Of a DNA stretch of 64,000 nucleotides, positions 2,893 through 34,324 are shown one piece after another (positions within the stretch are counted from its first letter, which is position 1; each line of letters starts with the position of its first letter). The stretch spans positions 1,316,774-1,380,773 of the forward strand of contig OZ245332.1 in the NCBI GenBank assembly GCA_965226065.1, read 5' to 3'. The DNA comes from Spirochaetia bacterium. Its GTDB lineage: Bacteria; Spirochaetota; Spirochaetia; WTKD01; G963693115. Both the position numbers and the translations under genes were made by a program. The notes under the pieces were generated by a model. That model was not told the DNA's origin, ran no database searches, and saw only the letters and a program-made list of their open reading frames with translations.

Positions 2893-3663
2893 TTATAATT
2901 TGTAGATAAGGTAGCGCTTGATATTCAATATAGAGTTACCTATAAGAATACCGCTAAGGAAAACATTAAAAACTTTTGAATTTGAAAAGAGAAGTAATTG
3001 CGTTGCAACGATGAATATCATCATTATAAAAAATTCAAAAAAGGCTATTCTTTTTTTGATGTGCAGTTGCATGTAATAAAAAAAATATAAAATCAGTATT
3101 ATTGAATACAAAATTACCGCTGAAAAAATAAAAATGTATTCACCACCTACATATAAGCTTAGAGATGATGCATTGGTATAAATAATAGGTGCGGCTATGC
3201 TTATTTTAAATGCAAAAGCAAGTGAAAACAAAAACAGCAATATTGAGTAAGGCATGTTTCGCACATGCATGCATACGATGGAAAAGAACCAAAATAACCC
3301 CATCGCAATGTAAAATCCGCTATAAATTTTTATGGATGTATGAGCTGTTGATGCTTTTTCTAGCATACCGTAGTAAAAATGTGTTCGTATTATAATAAGA
3401 GGAATGCTGCTTATCAGTGCAGCAATGAAAAAAAATTGATGTAAATTCATCATGTGTGTACGTAACACAAATAGTATGAGTAATGTGCTTATAAGTAATA
3501 CAAGTGCTAAGAACATACATAAATCATGCATTAAATCATTGTTTATTTGAAAGTGGACTAATAGCTCTTCTTCATCTATTAAATACAGAAAAAACCATAC
3601 TAATACAAGCATGATACAGGCTGTGTAGATTAGTAAAATTATTTTTCGTGCCGATGTTCCCAT
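2893..3663 (-). CDS. Hypothetical polytopic membrane protein
   Basis: 256-aa ORF with about 7 hydrophobic segments; no family motif recognised. Confidence 0.6.
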   Translation of the reverse strand: MGTSARKIILLIYTACIMLVLVWFFLYLIDEEELLVHFQINNDLMHDLCMFLALVLLISTLLILFVLRTHMMNLHQFFFIAALISSIPLIIIRTHFYYGMLEKASTAHTSIKIYSGFYIAMGLFWFFSIVCMHVRNMPYSILLFLFSLAFAFKISIAAPIIYTNASSLSLYVGGEYIFIFSAVILYSIILILYFFYYMQLHIKKRIAFFEFFIMMIFIVATQLLLFSNSKVFNVFLSGILIGNSILNIKRYLIYKL

Positions 3664-3741: not shown

Positions 3742-4446
3742 GTGAAACAGTACTTTTTCATAATAACTTTTCTCATTTCTGTAATTGTACAGGTGCATTC
3801 TGGTGAAGTTGCACGCTATAGAATAGTGGGAATATCAAGTGATTCTCAGTATTTAGCGTTTGTAGAATATGGGATAACTCAAGAAAATCAAATGTTTACG
3901 AACATGTCGATAGTGGATATTCCACAAAATGCATTTATCGCGAATGGCATTCGACAAAATGTATACGATGTTACGTTGCAGATAGATCAAGATGGCATCA
4001 ATGCCTTGCTAAAAACCGTAGTTACAAATAGCATGCTTCTTAAGCAATATAATGTAGATTTACTAAATTCTGGAAAACTTATATATATATTACTTAATGG
4101 AGATGTAACATCTAACTCCATATTTTTTACTGATTACGATACTGATATCAGCTATTCTGCGACATTGTCACAGAATATAAAAACAAGCGAAAACGGAAAT
4201 GCGAAAGTAACAGGTGCGTTTAACATAACAGCGACTGTTATACACAACGATGAAACTACTAGCCTTAGCATAGGATCTCCTGGACACTATAGAGCAGATG
4301 TAAAAAATTATCGTATACGGGCAGTGTATACAACACACGATAATACATCTCTTATATTTGTCATAGAAAAGCACATGGTTTCTCAAGTGTCAAAAAATGA
4401 TACGGATATTTACTACATGGTAGAAACTGCAAGATGGCGTAAATAA
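3742..4446 (+). CDS. DUF2259-like secreted protein (spirochete type)
   Basis: GTG start, signal peptide, then GEVARYRIVGISSDSQYLAFVEYG...IVDIPQNAF; recognised by eye. Confidence 0.7.
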   Translation: MKQYFFIITFLISVIVQVHSGEVARYRIVGISSDSQYLAFVEYGITQENQMFTNMSIVDIPQNAFIANGIRQNVYDVTLQIDQDGINALLKTVVTNSMLLKQYNVDLLNSGKLIYILLNGDVTSNSIFFTDYDTDISYSATLSQNIKTSENGNAKVTGAFNITATVIHNDETTSLSIGSPGHYRADVKNYRIRAVYTTHDNTSLIFVIEKHMVSQVSKNDTDIYYMVETARWRK

Positions 4447-4583: not shown

Positions 4584-5504
4584 ATGTCTCGTAAGTGCTT
4601 ATTCGCAGCAATTATTTTGATTTTTCATTTGCCATTACTAGGATTACTGCTTATATCAGCAGAATGTTCTCCTACGAACACTAGAGCAAAAAAAGCTCAG
4701 GAAAACGCACCAGAGACAGAAGAAACCACAAACGGTACAAAAGAAGCACCAGAGATAGAAGCTGCAGAATTCATAGCACAGGAGTACAAAAGCAAAGGCG
4801 ATGTTTATTTCAGAGCAAACGACTATCGCAAGGCAATAGAAAGTTATACAGAGGCTATTGCCTTGTTTACAGACAATAATGAGAAAGCGCGTTTATATGA
4901 AAAAATGACTAGGCTTTATATCATGTGCGTGCTTCGTAAACAGTGCCCGCCGAATTATAAAGCAAAAATAATAGAAGTCTTAGAAAAGGCTCTTAATTTG
5001 TATACAAAGAATGAAGATAAGGCAAAAACATACAAAAAAATAGGAGTACATTATCATTACAGTCTCAAAAATTATGAGAAGGCAATAGAAAGTTATACAA
5101 AGGCTATTGCCTTGCACACAGACAATAAACAGAAAACCAATGATTATATTGCATTAGCTGAAATAACAAGTAAGTTAAGAAACTACCATAAGGCAATAGA
5201 ACATTATACAGAAGCCATAAAGTACAATGAAGCTAAAAAAGCACTCATATACCAATACATAGGCACTGTTTATAGAGATGGCTTAAAAGACTACCGTAAA
5301 GCAATAGAATATTATACAAAGGTTATTGCTTTGTTTAAAGAGGAAGATATCGTAAGGCTTTCATCGGGTTATAAAGATAGAGCTAAAGCTTATTTATTGC
5401 TTGGAAATAAAGAGGAAGCAGCACAAGATACAGAACGTGCAGAAATAACGGAACGAGAAGTAAGTACACTTTTCAAAAAATTGTACTATCCTAAAAAAAC
5501 TTAA
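4584..5504 (+). CDS. Secreted or membrane-anchored TPR protein
   Basis: ATG at 4584 after ggag; hydrophobic N-terminus; repeated KAIESYTEAIALF-type TPR units. The ORF track starts at 4470. Confidence 0.8.
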   Translation: MSRKCLFAAIILIFHLPLLGLLLISAECSPTNTRAKKAQENAPETEETTNGTKEAPEIEAAEFIAQEYKSKGDVYFRANDYRKAIESYTEAIALFTDNNEKARLYEKMTRLYIMCVLRKQCPPNYKAKIIEVLEKALNLYTKNEDKAKTYKKIGVHYHYSLKNYEKAIESYTKAIALHTDNKQKTNDYIALAEITSKLRNYHKAIEHYTEAIKYNEAKKALIYQYIGTVYRDGLKDYRKAIEYYTKVIALFKEEDIVRLSSGYKDRAKAYLLLGNKEEAAQDTERAEITEREVSTLFKKLYYPKKT

Positions 5505-5551
5505 AATTATAAATCTCGCTAAGGTGTACTGATAAAACATTTTCTGTACGC

Positions 5552-5714
5552 TTTGAAAAAAAATCATTTTAAATACTTATTTAGAAGTACGCGCAAGAAT
5601 CATACGCATAGTAGAAAAACACTTACACTAGCACGGTGAAGATTTATAGCTCTCTTTATCCTTACAAAAAAGTAAGGCGTAAACGAGATATAGCTGCGGT
5701 AAAATTTTCATATA
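5552..5714 (+). repeat. 163-bp leader, copy 1 (upstream of 5716 gene)
   Basis: Direct repeat of 7002-7164 with 4 substitutions by eye; contains a bulged hairpin around ccttac-aaaaaa-gtaagg. Confidence 0.95.
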
Positions 5715-5715
5715 C

Positions 5716-6978
5716 ATGAAAAGAGCAGAAGAATTTAAGCAAATAAAAGAAGAATTTGAAAACATAAAAGCAGAGCTTAATGACAAAATTGAAAAATGTA
5801 ATACTGTCATTGAATTTGCAAATCAAATACAAGATCTTACTACTAAAAAAAATGCAATAGATGAATTTTTTAACAGCATTCATGAAGGTAATAACGGACA
5901 AGAATCTTTAAATATGCAGGTAGATAATGTATATGAAAAAATACAAGAATTCAATGAAAAGATTGAAGAGTCTACTAATAAGCAAGATGAATTAAATCAG
6001 TATTACATAGAAATATTTGGAGCATTAAACGAAGAAACACAAACAAGAGAAGATGGTTTTCAGCAGGAAGTAGAAACATTACAATTGCAGATACAAAAAG
6101 TAGAGAAATTTTTTGAAAATATTGATGATTTAGAACAACGCAAAAATAACACATATAACACAATACAAGAACTCAATGAAAAGATTGAAGAGTCTACTAA
6201 TAAACAAGATGAACTAAATAAGTATTACATAAGAATATTTGGATCATTAAACGAAAGAACACGAACAAGAGAAGGTGGGCTAAAGCAAGAAATAGAGATG
6301 CGCCGAGAGGGACTTGATACATATAAGAAAGAACAAGAAGATGTAATAAAAACATTGAAAAAAAAGATTCACAGATTAATGTCGAGTGCTGTGAGTGTTG
6401 GGCTTGCGAAGTCCTTTGCTGATGAAAAGAAAAAATTTAAGGAAGAAGTAGAAAAACATAGTAAATACTTTACATGGTGTATTGCTAGTTTAGTTTTACT
6501 TGGTGTAGGTAAATTTTTGTATGATGTTTTTTGGAACAAAACTATTGATGTTTTTACAATTAGTAATGTTTTGGTTTCTTTTTTGTCAACATTGCCTTTG
6601 TTTGCACCATTACTATGGTTAGCATATTCTTTTGCAAAAAGACGGAATGCATACGCCATGCTTTATCAAGAATACATGCATAAAGAAGCCTTTGCTAACT
6701 CATATAGTAGTTATAAACAACAAATAGAAGACTTACAAGATAACGATACAACATTACTCAATGAGTTATTAGAAAAAGCAATAAGAATTATTGCGAGAAA
6801 CCCAACGCATGTACTAACAAAAAAACATTCATCAGACTTGCCTATTGAAGAAATAGCGGTACTTATAAAAGCTTGCAAAGGTAATACAGAAGCGATTGCG
6901 AATGTTATAGATAATTTTCTAACACCAAAGCATAATAAGAACGAAGAAGATGAATCAAGTGACAATAATACTTCTTAA
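5716..6978 (+). CDS. Coiled-coil protein with two C-terminal TM helices, unknown function
   Basis: E/K/N/Q-rich helical N-terminus, two hydrophobic segments, then QEYMHKEAFANSYSSYKQQIE; has an internal duplication. Confidence 0.75.
   Translation: MKRAEEFKQIKEEFENIKAELNDKIEKCNTVIEFANQIQDLTTKKNAIDEFFNSIHEGNNGQESLNMQVDNVYEKIQEFNEKIEESTNKQDELNQYYIEIFGALNEETQTREDGFQQEVETLQLQIQKVEKFFENIDDLEQRKNNTYNTIQELNEKIEESTNKQDELNKYYIRIFGSLNERTRTREGGLKQEIEMRREGLDTYKKEQEDVIKTLKKKIHRLMSSAVSVGLAKSFADEKKKFKEEVEKHSKYFTWCIASLVLLGVGKFLYDVFWNKTIDVFTISNVLVSFLSTLPLFAPLLWLAYSFAKRRNAYAMLYQEYMHKEAFANSYSSYKQQIEDLQDNDTTLLNELLEKAIRIIARNPTHVLTKKHSSDLPIEEIAVLIKACKGNTEAIANVIDNFLTPKHNKNEEDESSDNNTS
5940..6279 (+). repeat. In-frame internal duplication (about 118 bp; 5940-6057 and 6162-6279)
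   Basis: IQEFNEKIEESTNKQDELNQYYIEIFGALNEETQTRE versus IQELNEKIEESTNKQDELNKYYIRIFGSLNERTRTRE, offset 222 bp. Confidence 0.9.
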
Positions 6979-7001
6979 AGCACAACTACATCAGTGAGGC
7001 A

Positions 7002-7164
7002 TTTGAAAAAAAATCATTTTAGATACTTATTTAGAAATACGCGCAAGAATCATACGCATAGTAGAAAAACACTTACACTAGTACGGTGAAGATTTATAGC
7101 TCTCTTTATCCTTACAAAAAAGTAAGGCGTAAATGAGATATAGCTGCGGTAAAATTTTCATATA
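7002..7164 (+). repeat. 163-bp leader, copy 2 (upstream of TPR-DUF2971 gene)
   Basis: Direct repeat of 5552-5714 at offset 1450; ends at the ATG of the 7164 ORF. Confidence 0.95.
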
Positions 7165-21193: not shown

Positions 21194-23886
21194 ATGAAAG
21201 AATACAGCATACCCATAATCAATGTTGCCGAACAGGCATGGGAATATGGCATTAACAAAGTCGAAATTCCTGCATATATTACAAGCAATTTGAAGCATGA
21301 TTTCTACGAGTGGCAAAGTGAGGCATAGTAAAATTTCTCACACAGCAACGCATCAAAGAAAAAGAGAATTCACATGCACCGCATCTTATGTTTACGATGG
21401 CAACAGGTTCGGGTAAAACGCTCATCATGGCAGCTACCATGTTGTATTATTACAAGCAAGGTTACAGGCACTTTTTGTTTTTTGTAAATCGAAACAATAT
21501 TGTAGCTAAAACTGAAAATAATTTTATTAATGTAGAGCATCCGAAATATCTTTTTACCGAAAAAATTGTCATCAATGATTCAACAATTGCTATGACACAA
21601 GTAGAGACTTTTAGCGATGCTCCACAAGGTATAGAAATAAAATTTACGAGTATTCAAAAACTCTACAATGATATTCACATTGAAAAAGAAAACCTTACAA
21701 CATTAAATGATTTACACAATAAAGACATTATCATGCTCGCCGATGAAGCTCATCACTTAAATACTGATACGAAAGCTGGAGCATCAGAACTGTTTTTAGA
21801 AGAGATACACGAAAGAACAAGCGCAACAGAAGTAGAAAGAAAAGGCTGGGAACACACGGTTATAGATCTTATTTTACATAAGAACAACACAGACAAGCGC
21901 AATAAAAATGTGTTGCTTGAATTTACTGCAACCATCCCTAATACTGAAAGCGTTGCTAAAAAATATCAAGATAAAATAATATACAAGTTTGGATTAAAAG
22001 ATTTCTTAGCTAAGGGATACACAAAAGAAATTAATCTTATTTCTTCTACCCTTGATAAAAAAGAAAGAGTTCTGCAAGCGTTGCTTTTTCAATGGTATCG
22101 ACACAAAATAGCGTTGAAATATAACATTGCCAATTTCAAACCCGTGATACTTTTTAGAAGTAAAACCATTGCTGAGTCGCAAGAGGATTACAAAGACTTC
22201 TTACAATGGATAGATGATCTTTCACGCAATGATTTTAATTTTCTTGACACTATTGCAAATAAAATTTATGAAGCGCAGCAACCAACACTTTTTGAAATGG
22301 GAAAATCGCGTACTAAAAAGGTCTTAGAGTTTGTTAAGAACGAAAACATTCGTATTGTAGACATAATAAATTGGATACAAGACAGCTATCAGGAAAGAAA
22401 CACTATTATTACGAATTCGAAAAACAATAAAACAAAGAAAGAAAAAACAGACGCTACTACAGAAACATTGCTTAATAATTTGGAAGATGTTAATAATCAC
22501 ATACGAGCAATTTTTACCGTAGAGAGACTTACCGAAGGTTGGGATGTATTGAATCTCTTTGATATTGTGCGACTGTACAAGGGGCAAAATGCAGGAGGCG
22601 GTACGAAAAAAACACCAGAGGCGACTATCAAAGAGAAACAACTTATAGGGCGTGGTGTGCGCTATTTTCCCTTTTCGCACGATGAGACAGTAAAGAATAA
22701 AAGAAAGTTTGATAGCAACCTCGACCATGAGTTACGAGTATTAGAAGAACTATATTATTACACCCATGATGAAAATTCACGCTATATTTCTCATTTGAAG
22801 GCAGAGCTAAAAAAAGACGGGTATATAACAGACGATAAAATCGTACAGACCTTTGCGCTTAAAGAGAAATTTAAGAATAGCTTGTATTATGAAACAACGA
22901 AACTATGGTATAACACACAAGTAGATAATCCTAATAGAAAAAAGAAACCATTAGATGAAATATTAAAAAATATGTCCATCACGTACGCATTAACAGGTTT
23001 TGAATTGCATGAAGAAAAAGGGATTGGGGATGACAAAGATAAAGAAACACATATAAATGGAAGTCCATCAAAAACTATACCAGTACCATGCAAAGATATT
23101 GAAAGACATATTTTCTTAAAGGCGGTGCATATCAAAGCAAAGCAAGAAAGATCTTTCTTTCAGTTTGAACAGCTAGAACAAGAATTAGATATTCATAGTA
23201 TTGATGAATTGCAAACGAATATATTAGCGGATAGTGAAATTCACTTTATTGTAGAGAAAGAAATGTCTTATGACAAGGTACCGAATAGAGAAAAATTAGA
23301 GGCAGTAAAACAGCTTTTAGATATGTTTTCTACAGAATGTAAAAAATATAGTATTCCAAAAATTGGTAGTGAATTTAAGGCAGGTAGTTTTTCACAGTTT
23401 TTTTCCACGCCTAAAACAAAAATCATAAACGAAAACCATAGAGATGATGCCATCGCAGAGCATAACTGGTATGTATTAAATAGCTTTGTTGGTACAAGCG
23501 AAGAAAAAGAGCTTGTTAATTTTATTAAAAACAGCGTTGGAAATTTACAAGAAAAGTATCAGGATATATATTTTCTAAAGAACGAAGAAATATATAAAAT
23601 ATACGACTTTGAACAAGGCAGAGGTTTTCAACCCGATTTTCTTTTGTTTTTGAAAGATAAAGAACAATTAGGCTTGTATTATCAAATATTTATTGAACCG
23701 AAAGGAGGGCATTTGTTGGGACATGATGAGTGGAAAGAAAATTTCTTAAAACGAATAGCAGCAGACTATGGAGATGCTCGCATATTACGTGCAGAGCATT
23801 TTTCCTACAAGCTCATAGGATTACCCTTTTTTAGCACTGGCGATAATGCGAATTTTGAACAAGAGTATAAGAAACTTTATTCGTAA
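21194..23886 (+). pseudogene. res: Type III R-M restriction subunit (Res) with a frameshift at about 21325
   Basis: Frame from 21194 gives ...EIPAYITSNLKHDFYEWQSEA*; the other frame continues IVKFL...MATGSGKT, DEAHH, EGWD, QLIGRGVR, PDF...EPKG. One base is missing (gca-ata-gta read as gca-tag-ta). Confidence 0.85.
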
Positions 23887-23947
23887 AGACTATTAAGATA
23901 CCTACTTTTGTGTACAGAAACGCTGTACGCATATGATAGTATAGAGC
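23871..23947 (+). repeat. 77-bp direct repeat, copy 1 (res 3' end plus downstream leader)
   Basis: Matches 26847-26923 at 75 of 77 positions. Confidence 0.95.
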
Positions 23948-23985: not shown

Positions 23986-25047
23986 ATGGCAAAAAAAATT
24001 GAAGCAATTGATTTATTTTGTGGGATAGGTGGACTTACCTATGGATTACAACAAGCTAATATTAAAGTTTTGGCGGGACTAGACAATGATGCTTCTTGTA
24101 AAGAAGCCTATGAAAAAAATAATCATTGTCAATTCATTGAAGCAGATGTAACAAAATATGATTTTGAAAAGATGAAAAACATATATTCCAATGATAGTAT
24201 TAAAATTTTAGTTGGATGTGCCCCCTGTCAACTTTTCTCATCTCACGCATTTAAAATAAAAAATAAAGAAGATGATACTAGATGGAACTTATTAAACTAT
24301 TTTTTAAAGGCACTTAGAATCGTTGAACCTCACGTTATTTCAATGGAAAATGTTAGAGGTATATTAAAAACTAGAGTTTTTGAAACATTTATCAAAAAAA
24401 TTGAAAATCTTGGATATAAATTTGATTATAAAGTAGTTTATTGTCCTGATTATGGCATACCTCAAAATAGAAGTAGGCTTGTTTTGCTCGGTTCAAAATT
24501 GGGAGAAATACAGATTATAGATAAAAAGTACAAACGAGAAAATTATGTAACTGTAGGTGATGTTATTAGGAATCTACCAAAACTAGAATTGGGAAAAATC
24601 GATAAAAAAGATACTATGCATAGATGTAAGAATTTATCACCATTAAATATAAAGAGAATACAACAATCCTTACCTCGCGGTACATGGAAAGACTGGGATA
24701 GAGATTTATTACCAAATTGTTATAAAAAGAGAAGTGGACAAACCTATACTTCTGTGTATGGAAGAATGAGTTGGGATACTGTTGCTCCAACAATTACTAC
24801 ACAATTTTTTAATTATGGTTCTGGTCGATTTGGTCATCCAGAACAAAATAGAGGGCTTTCACTTCGAGAGGGAGCGTTAATACAAACATTTCCTATAGAT
24901 TATTATTTTGGAGAAATTATTTCAATGACAACAATTGGTAGACATATAGGTAATGCTGTACCACCAAAGTTAGGAGCCGTTATAGGTGAAATTATTCAAA
25001 ACCATATAAAATATCACTATGGAAAAGGAAAAACATACTCAAACTGA
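23986..25047 (+). CDS. C5-cytosine DNA methyltransferase
   Basis: DLFCGIGG, GCAPCQ, MENV, QNRSR, LSLREGALIQTFP and IGNAVPP; ATG at 23986 after gagagga. Confidence 0.95.
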   Translation: MAKKIEAIDLFCGIGGLTYGLQQANIKVLAGLDNDASCKEAYEKNNHCQFIEADVTKYDFEKMKNIYSNDSIKILVGCAPCQLFSSHAFKIKNKEDDTRWNLLNYFLKALRIVEPHVISMENVRGILKTRVFETFIKKIENLGYKFDYKVVYCPDYGIPQNRSRLVLLGSKLGEIQIIDKKYKRENYVTVGDVIRNLPKLELGKIDKKDTMHRCKNLSPLNIKRIQQSLPRGTWKDWDRDLLPNCYKKRSGQTYTSVYGRMSWDTVAPTITTQFFNYGSGRFGHPEQNRGLSLREGALIQTFPIDYYFGEIISMTTIGRHIGNAVPPKLGAVIGEIIQNHIKYHYGKGKTYSN

Positions 25048-26670: not shown

Positions 26671-26862
26671 ATGTCACAGCATAATAAAATACATCTCTAC
26701 CTACAATCAATGTGCGCGGAAAAGGCATTTGAATATGGCACGGCATTAGCAAAACTGAAAATAATTTTCTTAACGCAGAGCATCCGAAATATTTTTTTAC
26801 CGAAAAAATTGTCATCAATGATGCAACGCTTGCCATCACACCAGTAGAAACTTTATTCGTAA
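26671..26862 (+). pseudogene. Collapsed remnant of a second res gene
   Basis: Three fused pieces: AEKAFEYG (res AEQAWEYG), AKTENNFLNAEHPKYFFTEKIVINDATLAITPVET (res AKTENNFINVEHPKYLFTEKIVINDSTIAMTQVET), and the last codons of res. Confidence 0.9.
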
Positions 26863-26923
26863 AGACTATTAAAACACCTACTTTTGTGTACAGAAACGCT
26901 GTACGCATATGATAGTATAGAGC
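26847..26923 (+). repeat. 77-bp direct repeat, copy 2 (leader of the sugar-binding lipoprotein gene)
   Basis: Matches 23871-23947 at offset 2976. Confidence 0.95.
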
Positions 26924-26924
26924 T

Positions 26925-27884
26925 ATGAAAAAAAGTGCATTATTTTTTGTCATGGTAGGAGTAATTTTTGTATCGTCTTGTGTAAGTGTTTCACATTCTT
27001 TCGCACCTACAATTGCGTTTTCAATACATGCAGAAAATGCAGCAACAGGGGCAATAACGCGTGAGTTAAAGGCACAAGTAGCAAAGGGTGCTATTAAAAA
27101 CATAGTAGTAGCCAGTGCTGAAGAAAACACAGGCGTGCAACTTTCAAAGATTGCTTCTTTTGTAAACACAAAATCTGTTGATGTGCTTCTCATACAAGTT
27201 TCAGATGAACTAGCTATGCAAAATGTGTATGAAATCATTCAATCTGCACACAGCAGCATTCCGATTATTTTTCTCGCTTCTGATGAATCGATATTTGAAA
27301 AAGCACCTATCGCTGTACGCAGTCATGCGAAAATCGGCTGCATTGTCATGTTTGGTCTCAAAGCGGGAGAAGTGCAAGGGCAATTTGTCAATGCGTTTTT
27401 ACGCGGAAGGGGAAAAGTCGGACTGCTCGTTGACAAAATTGGCAGTGCATCTCAAATATACAGAACGCGTGGCTTTGAAATAGGCATACAAAACACCGAT
27501 GTAATTATAACGCATCAAGAAGCTGCCAATTCAAAAAGCATAGCAGCACTGAAGATTGTGAAAAAGTGGATGCAAAATGAAACGGGTATCTTAGACGCCG
27601 TTGTTACAAATGACTCCAGCATGGCACTCGGTGCTGCACTTGCCTTAGAAGAACAAGGGCTTGAAGAACGCGTGCTTGTAATCGGAGGCGATATGTCAGA
27701 CGATGTTTTTACTGCGGTGAAAGCAGGCAATGTAACAATGACACTTGCACTTAATGTATCAGAGGTAGTGCGCGAAACTTTACACATGGTAGAACAGATG
27801 ACGAATGAGAAATTATTTGACAAAACAGTTGAAGTCGCACCGCTTGCCATAACCGCTAAAAATGTTGATATGTTTTTACGATAA
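26925..27884 (+). CDS. Sugar ABC transporter substrate-binding lipoprotein (RbsB/LacI-type fold), orphan
   Basis: Signal peptide with SSC lipobox; AVVTNDSSMALGA and VIGGD motifs; no permease or ATPase genes nearby. Confidence 0.75.
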   Translation: MKKSALFFVMVGVIFVSSCVSVSHSFAPTIAFSIHAENAATGAITRELKAQVAKGAIKNIVVASAEENTGVQLSKIASFVNTKSVDVLLIQVSDELAMQNVYEIIQSAHSSIPIIFLASDESIFEKAPIAVRSHAKIGCIVMFGLKAGEVQGQFVNAFLRGRGKVGLLVDKIGSASQIYRTRGFEIGIQNTDVIITHQEAANSKSIAALKIVKKWMQNETGILDAVVTNDSSMALGAALALEEQGLEERVLVIGGDMSDDVFTAVKAGNVTMTLALNVSEVVRETLHMVEQMTNEKLFDKTVEVAPLAITAKNVDMFLR

Positions 27885-32865: not shown

Positions 32866-32917
32866 GTACTTTAAACAGACGATGAATATGAGTGTGAAAA
32901 AAGGATATTATAGCAAT

Positions 32918-34324
32918 ATGAGAAAGCTTTGTTTTATATGGATAGTATGGTGTATAGGTTTAGTTTCTAATGTTTTTGCAGAAGAAAGGGAAGGACACGC
33001 AGTAGCACAGAGTTTCGTAGAACGCAGTGTAGCGAAGAAACGATTTTTACGAGACATGTCGATGGTATACGACTATGTAGTAAAGAATTACTACAAAGAG
33101 CCGGATTTAGAGCAAATGTTATTTGGGTCACTAGCGGGAATGATGGGGAATTTAGGAGATGCGTACTCGACATTTATAACGCCGGAAGAAGCGAAGGAAT
33201 ATAGCGAAGAGATAGCAGGTGAATTTGGGGGACTAGGGATACGAATAGATGTAGGAACGGACAAAGAGAGTGGGATATCGTACATAAAAGTAATAACGCC
33301 GATAGGCAACACACCGGCGGAGCGTTTAGGGATTTTACCGGGAGATTTAATAACGAGAGTAGACGAGACAAGCTTGGCAGGATATACGACACGAGAAGCG
33401 GTAAAGATAATGAGGGGGAAGCCGGGAACAAAGGTAGAACTGACAATAAAGCGAGGAGAGAAAACATTTACCTTGAAGATAGAGCGAGCAGTGATAAACA
33501 ACATTAATTTAGAATACGAGCATATAGATGAAGAGATAGTGTATATGAAGATAAGCAGTTTTACGCAAGACTTACCGCAAGATTTTGCAGATGCGATGAA
33601 AGAGATAAACAAGAGGGAATACAAGACGATACTAGTAGATTTACGAAATAATCCGGGAGGCTCGTTAAGTTCGGTAGTGGATATAGCAGATGCGTTTTTA
33701 GAGTCGGGGTTGGTAGTAGGAACGAAGGCGCGAGATTCTCGGAAGAATACGCAGTACAATTCGACAGATGCATTGTTAGTTCCGAAGGAGAAGCAGGTAG
33801 TAGTGATAGTAAACGAAGGGTCAGCATCGGCATCGGAGATACTATCGGGAGCAATAAAAGATAGAAAGCGAGGGACGGTAGTAGGGAGTAGGACATTTGG
33901 GAAGGGGTTAGTGCAATCGGTAAATGCGTTTGAGTCGGGGTTTATCAGTATAACGACATCGCAGTATTATACGCCGAATGGAACGTTTATAGATGAGAAA
34001 GGAATAGAACCGGATAGAGAGATAGAGCCTAGTCATTCTGTAGATGAGATGACAGGAGCAGAGCTGCAAGACTTACAAAAGATGATAGAAGAGAACTTGG
34101 CGTTAAAGTTTGTGGAAACGCATGAGGAATTAAGCGATGAAGCGATGTTTGAGAGGTTTAGCAAAGAGCTTGAAGTGCAGGGGCTTAGCATTGATACGTT
34201 TTTTATAAAACGTAGTCTACACTTTGCACGCAATCGGAACAAGAACACGATAGAAGTTTTTAACCTAGAGTTTGATTCAGTGCTACGCAGCACCGTAGAG
34301 ATGATACGCAATCGTATGCTTTAA
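32918..34324 (+). CDS. ctpA: S41 family carboxy-terminal processing protease
   Basis: Signal peptide from ATG 32918, PDZ domain, DLRNNPGG, NEGSASASE and GSRTFGKG. Confidence 0.93.
   Translation: MRKLCFIWIVWCIGLVSNVFAEEREGHAVAQSFVERSVAKKRFLRDMSMVYDYVVKNYYKEPDLEQMLFGSLAGMMGNLGDAYSTFITPEEAKEYSEEIAGEFGGLGIRIDVGTDKESGISYIKVITPIGNTPAERLGILPGDLITRVDETSLAGYTTREAVKIMRGKPGTKVELTIKRGEKTFTLKIERAVINNINLEYEHIDEEIVYMKISSFTQDLPQDFADAMKEINKREYKTILVDLRNNPGGSLSSVVDIADAFLESGLVVGTKARDSRKNTQYNSTDALLVPKEKQVVVIVNEGSASASEILSGAIKDRKRGTVVGSRTFGKGLVQSVNAFESGFISITTSQYYTPNGTFIDEKGIEPDREIEPSHSVDEMTGAELQDLQKMIEENLALKFVETHEELSDEAMFERFSKELEVQGLSIDTFFIKRSLHFARNRNKNTIEVFNLEFDSVLRSTVEMIRNRML

Follow-up and report, generated by a model that had tools for sequence, protein, structure and literature searches.

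A direct repeat of 163 nucleotides leads into two unrelated genes

We analysed a stretch of 64,000 nucleotides (nt) from a Spirochaetia bacterium (the window, C1:1316774-1380773; the genome, referred to as G000, is a single contig of 1.85 Mb and has a GC content of 37.3%), in which a leader sequence of 163 nt, called T in what follows, is present twice in direct orientation. Coordinates are positions in the window unless they carry the contig name C1. The upstream copy (copy A or T1, 5552-5714, + strand) and the downstream copy (copy B or T2, 7002-7164, + strand) start 1450 nt apart and align without gaps at 97.5% identity (BLAST E = 1e-75). They differ by four substitutions, all of which are transitions (5572 A/G, 5587 G/A, 5632 C/T and 5684 C/T). 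The left edge of the repeat is sharp: the alignment shows no similarity further left of 5552/7002. On the right, an ungapped extension to 5724/7174 passes through three mismatches and then seven matches (GAAAAGA), which brings the repeat to 173 nt at 96% identity.

Each copy is fitted closely between coding sequences. Copy A, with a GC content of 31% and neither a Shine-Dalgarno (SD) sequence nor a sigma-70 consensus, begins 47 nt past the stop codon of an upstream TPR gene, P0003 (stop end 5504), and ends 1 nt 5′ of the ATG of P0001 at 5716. Copy B begins 23 nt past the stop codon of P0001 (end 6978) and stands immediately before P0002, a TPR-DUF2971 gene; its final base is the A of the P0002 ATG at 7164. 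The 23 nt between the P0001 stop and copy B (6979-7001, + strand) would represent the 3′ flank of an insert, with 7001|7002 as the novel junction on that side. The proteins encoded by P0001 and P0002 are unrelated (BLASTP E = 9.5). An earlier reading of this DNA, made from its letters alone (the sequence-only reading), had described a 163-bp duplication with four substitutions whose copies end at the starts of two unrelated genes; alignment, BLAST and BLASTP bear this description out.

A bulged hairpin is predicted at the same place in both copies (5644-5693 in copy A and 7094-7143 in copy B, + strand). In the minimum free energy fold, a stem CCTTAC/GTAAGG is closed by a loop of six A residues and continued by outer stems TCTC/GAGA and TATA/TATA. 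The fold is identical in the two copies, with a free energy of -15.8 kcal/mol and a z-score of -2.9 (9/1000 dinucleotide shuffles were equally stable). Only one of the four substitutions lies within the hairpin, the C-to-T change at 5684 (7134 in copy B), and it falls on an unpaired base of the bulge. Folding therefore confirms the claim, made from the letters, that the hairpin is kept in both copies with its sole internal substitution in a bulge. With two copies and one substitution, the covariation information for the hairpin is nil.

The first gene has a foreign composition and the second looks native at its start

P0001 (5716-6978, + strand) encodes a protein of 420 amino acids (aa) with an N-terminal coiled coil and two transmembrane helices. 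Its GC content is 29.5%, versus 37% for the genome, 42.6% for the TPR array of P0002 and 36% for the DUF2971 part of P0002. Homologues are rare: only 13 were found among 5.8 billion proteins, at 28-52% identity and in unrelated organisms including Sulfurospirillum. In the family, which is without annotation, a two-helix membrane hairpin is surrounded by the conserved motifs GGLK.EI, ATSVGLAKAF.DEKK.FK and QEY.HKE.FA.SYSSYK.QIE; in P0001 itself the conserved C-terminal region reads QEYxHKEAFAxSYSSYKQQIE. Searches of P0001 in Pfam, PADLOC and NCBIfam gave coiled-coil noise only, and no phage homologue was matched. An AlphaFold model was all-helical and too poor for a fold search (predicted local distance difference test 62, predicted template modelling score 0.24). 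The N-terminal consensus of the family is M-[NDK]-R-x-E-E-F and P0001 starts MKRAEEF. This fit indicates that the ATG and first codons of P0001 are its own, and consequently places the T|P0001 joint at that ATG or immediately 5′ of it.

The genomic contexts of six P0001 homologues were examined. The gene is solitary in all six, and three of the contexts (L023, L026 and L037) are defence neighbourhoods, the remainder being housekeeping surroundings. Two homologues lie directly 3′ of an N6/N4 DNA methylase gene and one lies opposite a group formed by ThsB_TIR, 8xMP, DpnI and methylases. P0001 was also considered as a partner of DUF2971 and this was rejected, a DUF2971 neighbour being found in 0/6 homologue contexts.

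P0001 has an internal duplication of 151 nt (5924-6074 / 6146-6296, 85% identity) in a coiled-coil segment of the form ...QE(F/L)NEKIEESTNKQDELN.YYI.IFG.LNE..., and its closest homologue, P0004 (296 aa), is without one copy of this duplication.

P0002 (7164-10058, + strand) encodes 964 aa, made up of 15 near-identical TPR units and a C-terminal DUF2971 domain. Three full paralogues are present in the genome; all have an AAGGAG or GGAG SD sequence before the ATG and P0002 has none. The N-termini of P0002 (MRKDYTAIIEDPNVSDKDKA) and of paralogue 3 (MSNTDDIINAPNASNKEKA) begin at the same point of the TPR unit, from which the P0002 N-terminus looks native and not truncated. The shared start point also led us to reject a fusion of copy B to a truncated TPR array. 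As to the seven matching nucleotides (GAAAAGA) beyond the 163-nt repeat, they are best read as coincidence or microhomology, both genes opening with Lys/Arg codons.

One DUF2971 paralogue (C1:111798-113717) is followed by a duplicate of its own first 118 nt (114074-114191, 96.6% identity), beyond which come an unrelated gene of lipoprotein-like type and, at 114909-115226, a DUF2971 C-terminal fragment of 114 aa. The whole arrangement (C1:111798-115226) looks like a collapsed tandem duplicate.

The duplicated leader as a probable insertion scar

On balance, the duplicated leader is probably the scar of an insertion with long target duplication, through which P0001 came to lie before the TPR-DUF2971 gene. 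T would originally have been the single-copy 5′ intergenic region of this resident gene, inside a 22-kb island. The insert would begin at the ATG of P0001 itself, end 23 nt beyond the stop of that gene and be spliced in exactly at the resident start codon. This would leave T on both sides, in the order T-P0001-T-TPR, with no recombinase encoded by the element. The anatomy of the locus agrees with this proposal: the repeat, with exactly two copies, brackets a single gene of 1.29 kb and there is no homology outside the repeat. P0001, with its low GC content and just 13 homologues in unrelated contexts, looks foreign, and P0002 belongs to a family with three other members in the genome. Furthermore, the whole island is absent from a genome of the same genus (G001), and the same footprint recurs at about eight sites of the genome (see below).

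By the likeliest route, incoming or sister DNA would have recombined using T as homologous partner, together with one illegitimate joint at 7001|7002. This might have happened by homology-facilitated illegitimate recombination after DNA uptake or by Campbell-type integration of a circle carrying T and P0001. If the left joint was homologous within T and the donor already carried T-P0001, a common register of both genes after T would follow, and the 2.5% by which the copies differ would measure how far donor and recipient had diverged, not the age of the event. The exact start-codon register hints that leader homology, and not a random break, positioned the insert. Both comEC and dprA are present in the genome, which makes DNA uptake possible; the support is weak, since most control genomes have both genes.

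Both processes invoked here have precedents. Insertion with long target duplication is said to have been described by Nobusato et al. in 2000 for restriction-modification (R-M) genes, and homology-facilitated illegitimate recombination during natural transformation was reportedly described by de Vries and Wackernagel in 2002. With the second process the locus shares a configuration with one homologous anchor and one illegitimate joint, T(donor)-P0001-23 nt | T(recipient)-TPR, which would explain the start-codon register and the 2.5% divergence and would suit a genome with comEC and dprA; it differs in that, for this locus, the process is a mechanism that we infer. There is also a likeness to amplifiable units and Campbell integration: a 1450-bp unit with 163-bp repeats could be deleted, circularised or amplified by RecA-dependent recombination.

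Kobayashi's group, which named the class, delimited it as inserts of <20 kb bounded by direct repeats that exceed 30 bp (46-423 bp in the tables), the repeats being unique in the genome and present as a single copy in a related genome without the insert, and the insert carrying no mobility genes (PMC2853133). The inserts are often deviant in GC content and were found mostly in naturally competent species (PMC2853133). Homologues of R and M genes in the insert were a screening criterion of Furuta, Abe and Kobayashi 2010 (PMC2853133). At the present locus, the flanking direct repeats are 163 nt long (173 nt when extended) with 97.5% identity, they are unique to the site (two copies by blastn, blastn-short and a covariance model), and the insert is 1.29 kb with one open reading frame (ORF) and no mobility genes. 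P0001 has no R-M domains, and R and M homologues are a feature of the screen, not of the footprint. The likeness to the class thus extends to a short unit of foreign composition, imperfect repeats of high identity, the absence of a transposase or integrase, a neighbourhood of defence genes, and several independent events per genome, each with a different repeat.

Several points weigh against this interpretation. The published class was defined on R-M cargo, whereas the cargo here, in place of an R-M pair, is a single gene for a coiled-coil membrane protein. The duplicated target comprises the whole 5′ intergenic leader, at whose end both genes start, and two start codons placed exactly at the end of a repeat are unexpected for a random insertion; this register calls either for selection on expression or for a donor in which T already preceded P0001. 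No flanking direct repeats were found around the P0001 homologues in the six contexts examined, and the repeat footprint is not a property of the P0001 gene family. Finally, the direction of the event and its assignment to the class appear from evidence within this genome, whereas the comparison with an empty site defined the class in the published work; the assignment made here is to be taken as provisional.

The proposal that a 1450-bp unit was inserted by recombination at the leader, put forward in the sequence-only reading, fits the anatomy of the locus and the pattern across the genome; that reading as a whole is supported in part.

A variable defence island surrounds the unit

The unit lies in a variable island of 22.4 kb (4470-26924, + strand), recognised from its gene content and by comparison with G001. 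On its left is a DUF2259 gene (3742-4446), conserved and single-copy in 8/8 relatives tested. In G001, the orthologue of a sugar-binding-protein gene (26925-27884) comes directly after those of 2256-2876, 2893-3663 and 3742-4446, with a gap of ~550 nt between the DUF2259 and sugar-binding-protein orthologues. As the flanking genes are adjacent in G001, 4470-26924 is variable; it is a defence-island hotspot between two conserved genes. An empty site was also sought via the aspartase neighbour, and the closest metagenome contig loses synteny immediately.

The island contains P0003, P0001, P0002, two tandem Type III mod genes, a lyase gene, a transporter gene, a DpnII-like R-M system, a DUF4917 gene, res, and dcm with a GHKL ATPase gene, as well as collapsed mod and res remnants and many local duplications. 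The + strand carries all 18 genes between 3742 and 27884. P0003 (4470-5504, + strand), the TPR gene upstream of copy A, encodes 344 aa as called, with a signal-peptide-like N-terminus and matches to Pfam TPR_1/2/12. It is island-specific: no orthologue above 30% identity was found among 5.8 billion proteins and none in G001.

A second long direct repeat is present at the other end of the island (78 nt, 97.4% identity; 23870-23947 on the + strand, partner 26846-26923). It brackets the dcm and GHKL ATPase unit together with a collapsed res remnant. The right copy ends 1 nt before the ATG of the sugar-binding-protein gene at 26925, and 38 nt separate the left copy from the likely start of dcm further downstream, at 23986, dcm having its own SD sequence.

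The footprint recurs with other repeats and other cargo

The whole genome was compared with itself by local BLAST for direct repeats of 60-450 bp with at least 93% identity within 12-kb chunks. This returned 40 direct-repeat pairs, mostly intragenic tandem arrays or ends of paralogues. Eight of the 40 have the form repeat-unit-repeat with a unit of 1-3 kb, their repeats being 77-357 bp long and 93.7-99.4% identical. Two are those of the window, the 163-bp repeat at 5552/7002 around P0001 (97.5%) and the 78-bp repeat at 23870/26846 around dcm and the GHKL ATPase gene (97.4%). The six units outside the window (repeats of 138-357 bp) are candidates for further insertions with long target duplication. 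Along contig C1, a repeat of 281 bp (99.3%) at 704088/707000 brackets a gene for a TIR-STAND protein of 855 aa, and a repeat of 300 bp (93.7%) at 782363/785566 encloses Thoeris-like cargo (DUF488, one unknown gene, ThsB_TIR and 8xMP). A SocA/Panacea toxin-antitoxin pair is found twice, at 982681/983742 within a repeat of 138 bp (94.9%) and at 1147450/1148774 within one of 228 bp (97.8%). At 1077376/1078890 a repeat of 158 bp (99.4%) surrounds an N6/N4 methyltransferase gene and a His-Me endonuclease gene, and at 1487537/1489873 a repeat of 357 bp (98.0%) surrounds a methyltransferase gene, a gene of 230 aa and an IS1595 fragment.

The repeats themselves are all different and no motif is common to the eight. 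A BLAST search of the genome gives two hits for seven of them and three for the eighth, the 357-bp repeat at 1487537. The repeat at C1:1077376 is the 3′ end of a resident gene, and that at C1:1147450 the 3′ end of an amidohydrolase gene. Insert GC content is below that of the 5-kb flanks in 7/8 cases (27-32% versus 35-40%) and alike at 1077376. Repeat ends are also found near start codons elsewhere: one repeat runs 10 nt beyond the start codon of the inserted methylase at 1077524, and another reaches 26 nt into the resident gene at 704113.

In six of the eight cases the cargo is non-R-M or mixed, which means that the footprint in this genome is not tied to R-M enzymes. To the unexplained entry of defence and addiction genes without a recombinase, the locus adds one well-resolved example, with about seven companions in one small genome and a footprint not confined to R-M cargo. 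Of modest note are how densely such scars occur, with about eight in 1.85 Mb and a varied cargo of defence and addiction genes, and the exact start-codon register at this locus.

Other origins of the duplication and possible roles of the leader

A different origin, which we regard as unlikely though it accounts for some details, is capture of the leader in place. T would then have belonged to P0001 only, and a copy of 163-173 nt would have been pasted 23 nt past the P0001 stop, via template switching or via tandem duplication and deletion. This copy would have replaced the native 5′ region of the TPR-DUF2971 gene, which would now use P0001 signals. The match between the two copies does resume after three mismatches for 7 nt (GAAAAGA) into both coding regions, and AAAAGA is native to the P0001 family (codons K-R). 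P0002 is the sole one of the four paralogues without an AAGGAG SD sequence, as if its upstream region had been replaced, and the island is rich in local duplications and collapsed remnants. However, the 7-nt match may be coincidental, both genes opening with Lys/Arg codons. The P0002 N-terminus is native-looking, with the same start as paralogue 3, and it is P0001, not P0002, that has the foreign composition. In addition, two illegitimate joints placed exactly at a start codon are needed.

Rather improbable too, in our estimate, is that T is the fixed expression slot of a strain-variable locus, with accessory genes such as P0001 and the TPR-DUF2971 gene as alternative alleles in the population behind an SD-less hairpin leader. 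Were this so, the organism would build its defence islands by stacking such alleles in tandem, through a homologous crossover within the leader and a single illegitimate joint, and the process would be a recombinase-free functional analogue of an integron. An expression slot would also explain the scars that end near start codons, within at most 2 nt at the two window sites and at most about 26 nt at two others.

T could also be a functional cis-regulatory unit: an operator palindrome, an RNA hairpin or a leader for SD-independent translation. Its copies would then be kept alike by selection or gene conversion, so as to co-regulate two defence genes. This possibility, which is compatible with either origin, seems to us doubtful, although the hairpin is more stable than shuffled sequences and is unchanged in both copies, with the substitution in the bulge. 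As a result of the duplication both genes appear, from their sequence, to share a 5′ region that is SD-less and hairpin-bearing. Both stand in the same register behind it, and no SD-like motif is found before either ATG (5716 and 7164), though the host uses SD sites: GGAG peaks at -12 to -9, and an SD-like motif precedes 30% of crudely called genes versus 6.7% background. Against a regulatory role stand the lack of covariation and of an Rfam match, the absence of a sigma-70 promoter common to both copies, and the fact that the element was found nowhere else in our searches. Moreover, the sequence in the seven other repeat pairs is ordinary, either coding or intergenic, which shows that duplications of this kind arise in the genome with no regulatory role.

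The promoter searches gave little. A scan for the sigma-70 consensus found no promoter-like site and no terminator-like site inside either leader copy. A looser scan gave none in copy A and two marginal candidates (8/12) in copy B, none of them common to both. A Bacteroidetes-type TAnnTTTG promoter was considered, as T starts with TTTG, and was rejected because the motif is not enriched upstream of genes. With all 18 genes from 3742 to 27884 on the + strand, transcription by read-through has to be reckoned with in place of a promoter within T.

The leader as a mobile element

The sequence-only reading had further proposed that the leader might be mobile, a promoter or RNA element gathering accessory genes, integron-like but without canonical attC ends or a visible integrase. 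Exactly two copies of T were found in the genome, by blastn, by blastn-short (word size 7) and by a covariance model, R1, built from the two copies with 53 base pairs. BLAST against 60 relatives, the covariance model run on 20 relatives and blastn against PLSDB plasmids detected no copy. The exact hairpin 39-mer has no match in 185,579 GTDB species genomes. The 20-mer of the hairpin core has four matches in GTDB species genomes and JGI metagenomes, of only 20-21 nt each, which are unrelated simple hairpins. Rfam 15 gave no match in the window at the gathering score, and a permissive Rfam search of copy A with its flanks (5480-5760) gave noise only (E = 2.4 and 5.2).

The ends of the unit are equally plain. 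T has no terminal inverted repeats (8/15 terminal bases are complementary), and the attC cores RYYYAAC/GTTRRRY are absent from the unit ends, each occurring once inside the P0001 coding sequence (6800 and 6397). Neither the insert ORF nor the 17 neighbouring ORFs encode an integrase or transposase as judged by Pfam. Only two tyrosine recombinases (PF00589) are encoded in the genome, at C1:1.538-1.540 Mb, more than 210 kb away. The statement that attC ends and an integrase are missing is thereby upheld.

The two tyrosine recombinase genes (C1:1538214-1540629) flank dprA and lie 2 kb from a DUF2971 paralogue (1542603-1544438).

The locus resembles integron cassettes in having promoterless accessory genes that follow one another in a single orientation, with a shared sequence upstream. 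Unlike integrons, with their IntI, attI/attC sites and Pc promoter, it is without IntI, attC structure or core sites and T has two copies; every other such site in this genome has another repeat. A miniature inverted-repeat transposable element (MITE) or a repeat derived from an insertion sequence differs from T, which has no terminal inverted repeats and is not multicopy. That T is a mobile integron-like or MITE-like element recruiting accessory genes is thus very improbable: two unrelated genes do stand behind near-identical leaders in a defence island, but the leader has exactly two genomic copies, the searches of relatives and public collections gave none, its ends show neither terminal inverted repeats nor attC cores, and the only recombinases are >210 kb distant. 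What the sequence-only reading had named as pointing to a one-off duplication is, for the most part, what we find, that is two copies only and no covariation. That reading is half right: there is an inserted unit, and there is no gene-collecting leader. The data give no grounds for postulating a new class of mobile promoters or RNA elements.

Other repeated sequences

Two further kinds of duplication were noticed. In the window, 32907-34324 (a ctpA-like gene) is a 1418-bp inverted duplicate, 99.2% identical, of C1:1095535-1096952, 254 kb away. The genome also carries a very large multigene family, in which dozens of blocks of ~0.5-2.6 kb are 80-95% identical and upstream regions are shared too, for example at C1 72-77 kb, 226-241 kb, 397-411 kb, 1.652-1.668 Mb and 1.777-1.796 Mb. 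Repeated sequence makes up a substantial part of the 1.85 Mb.

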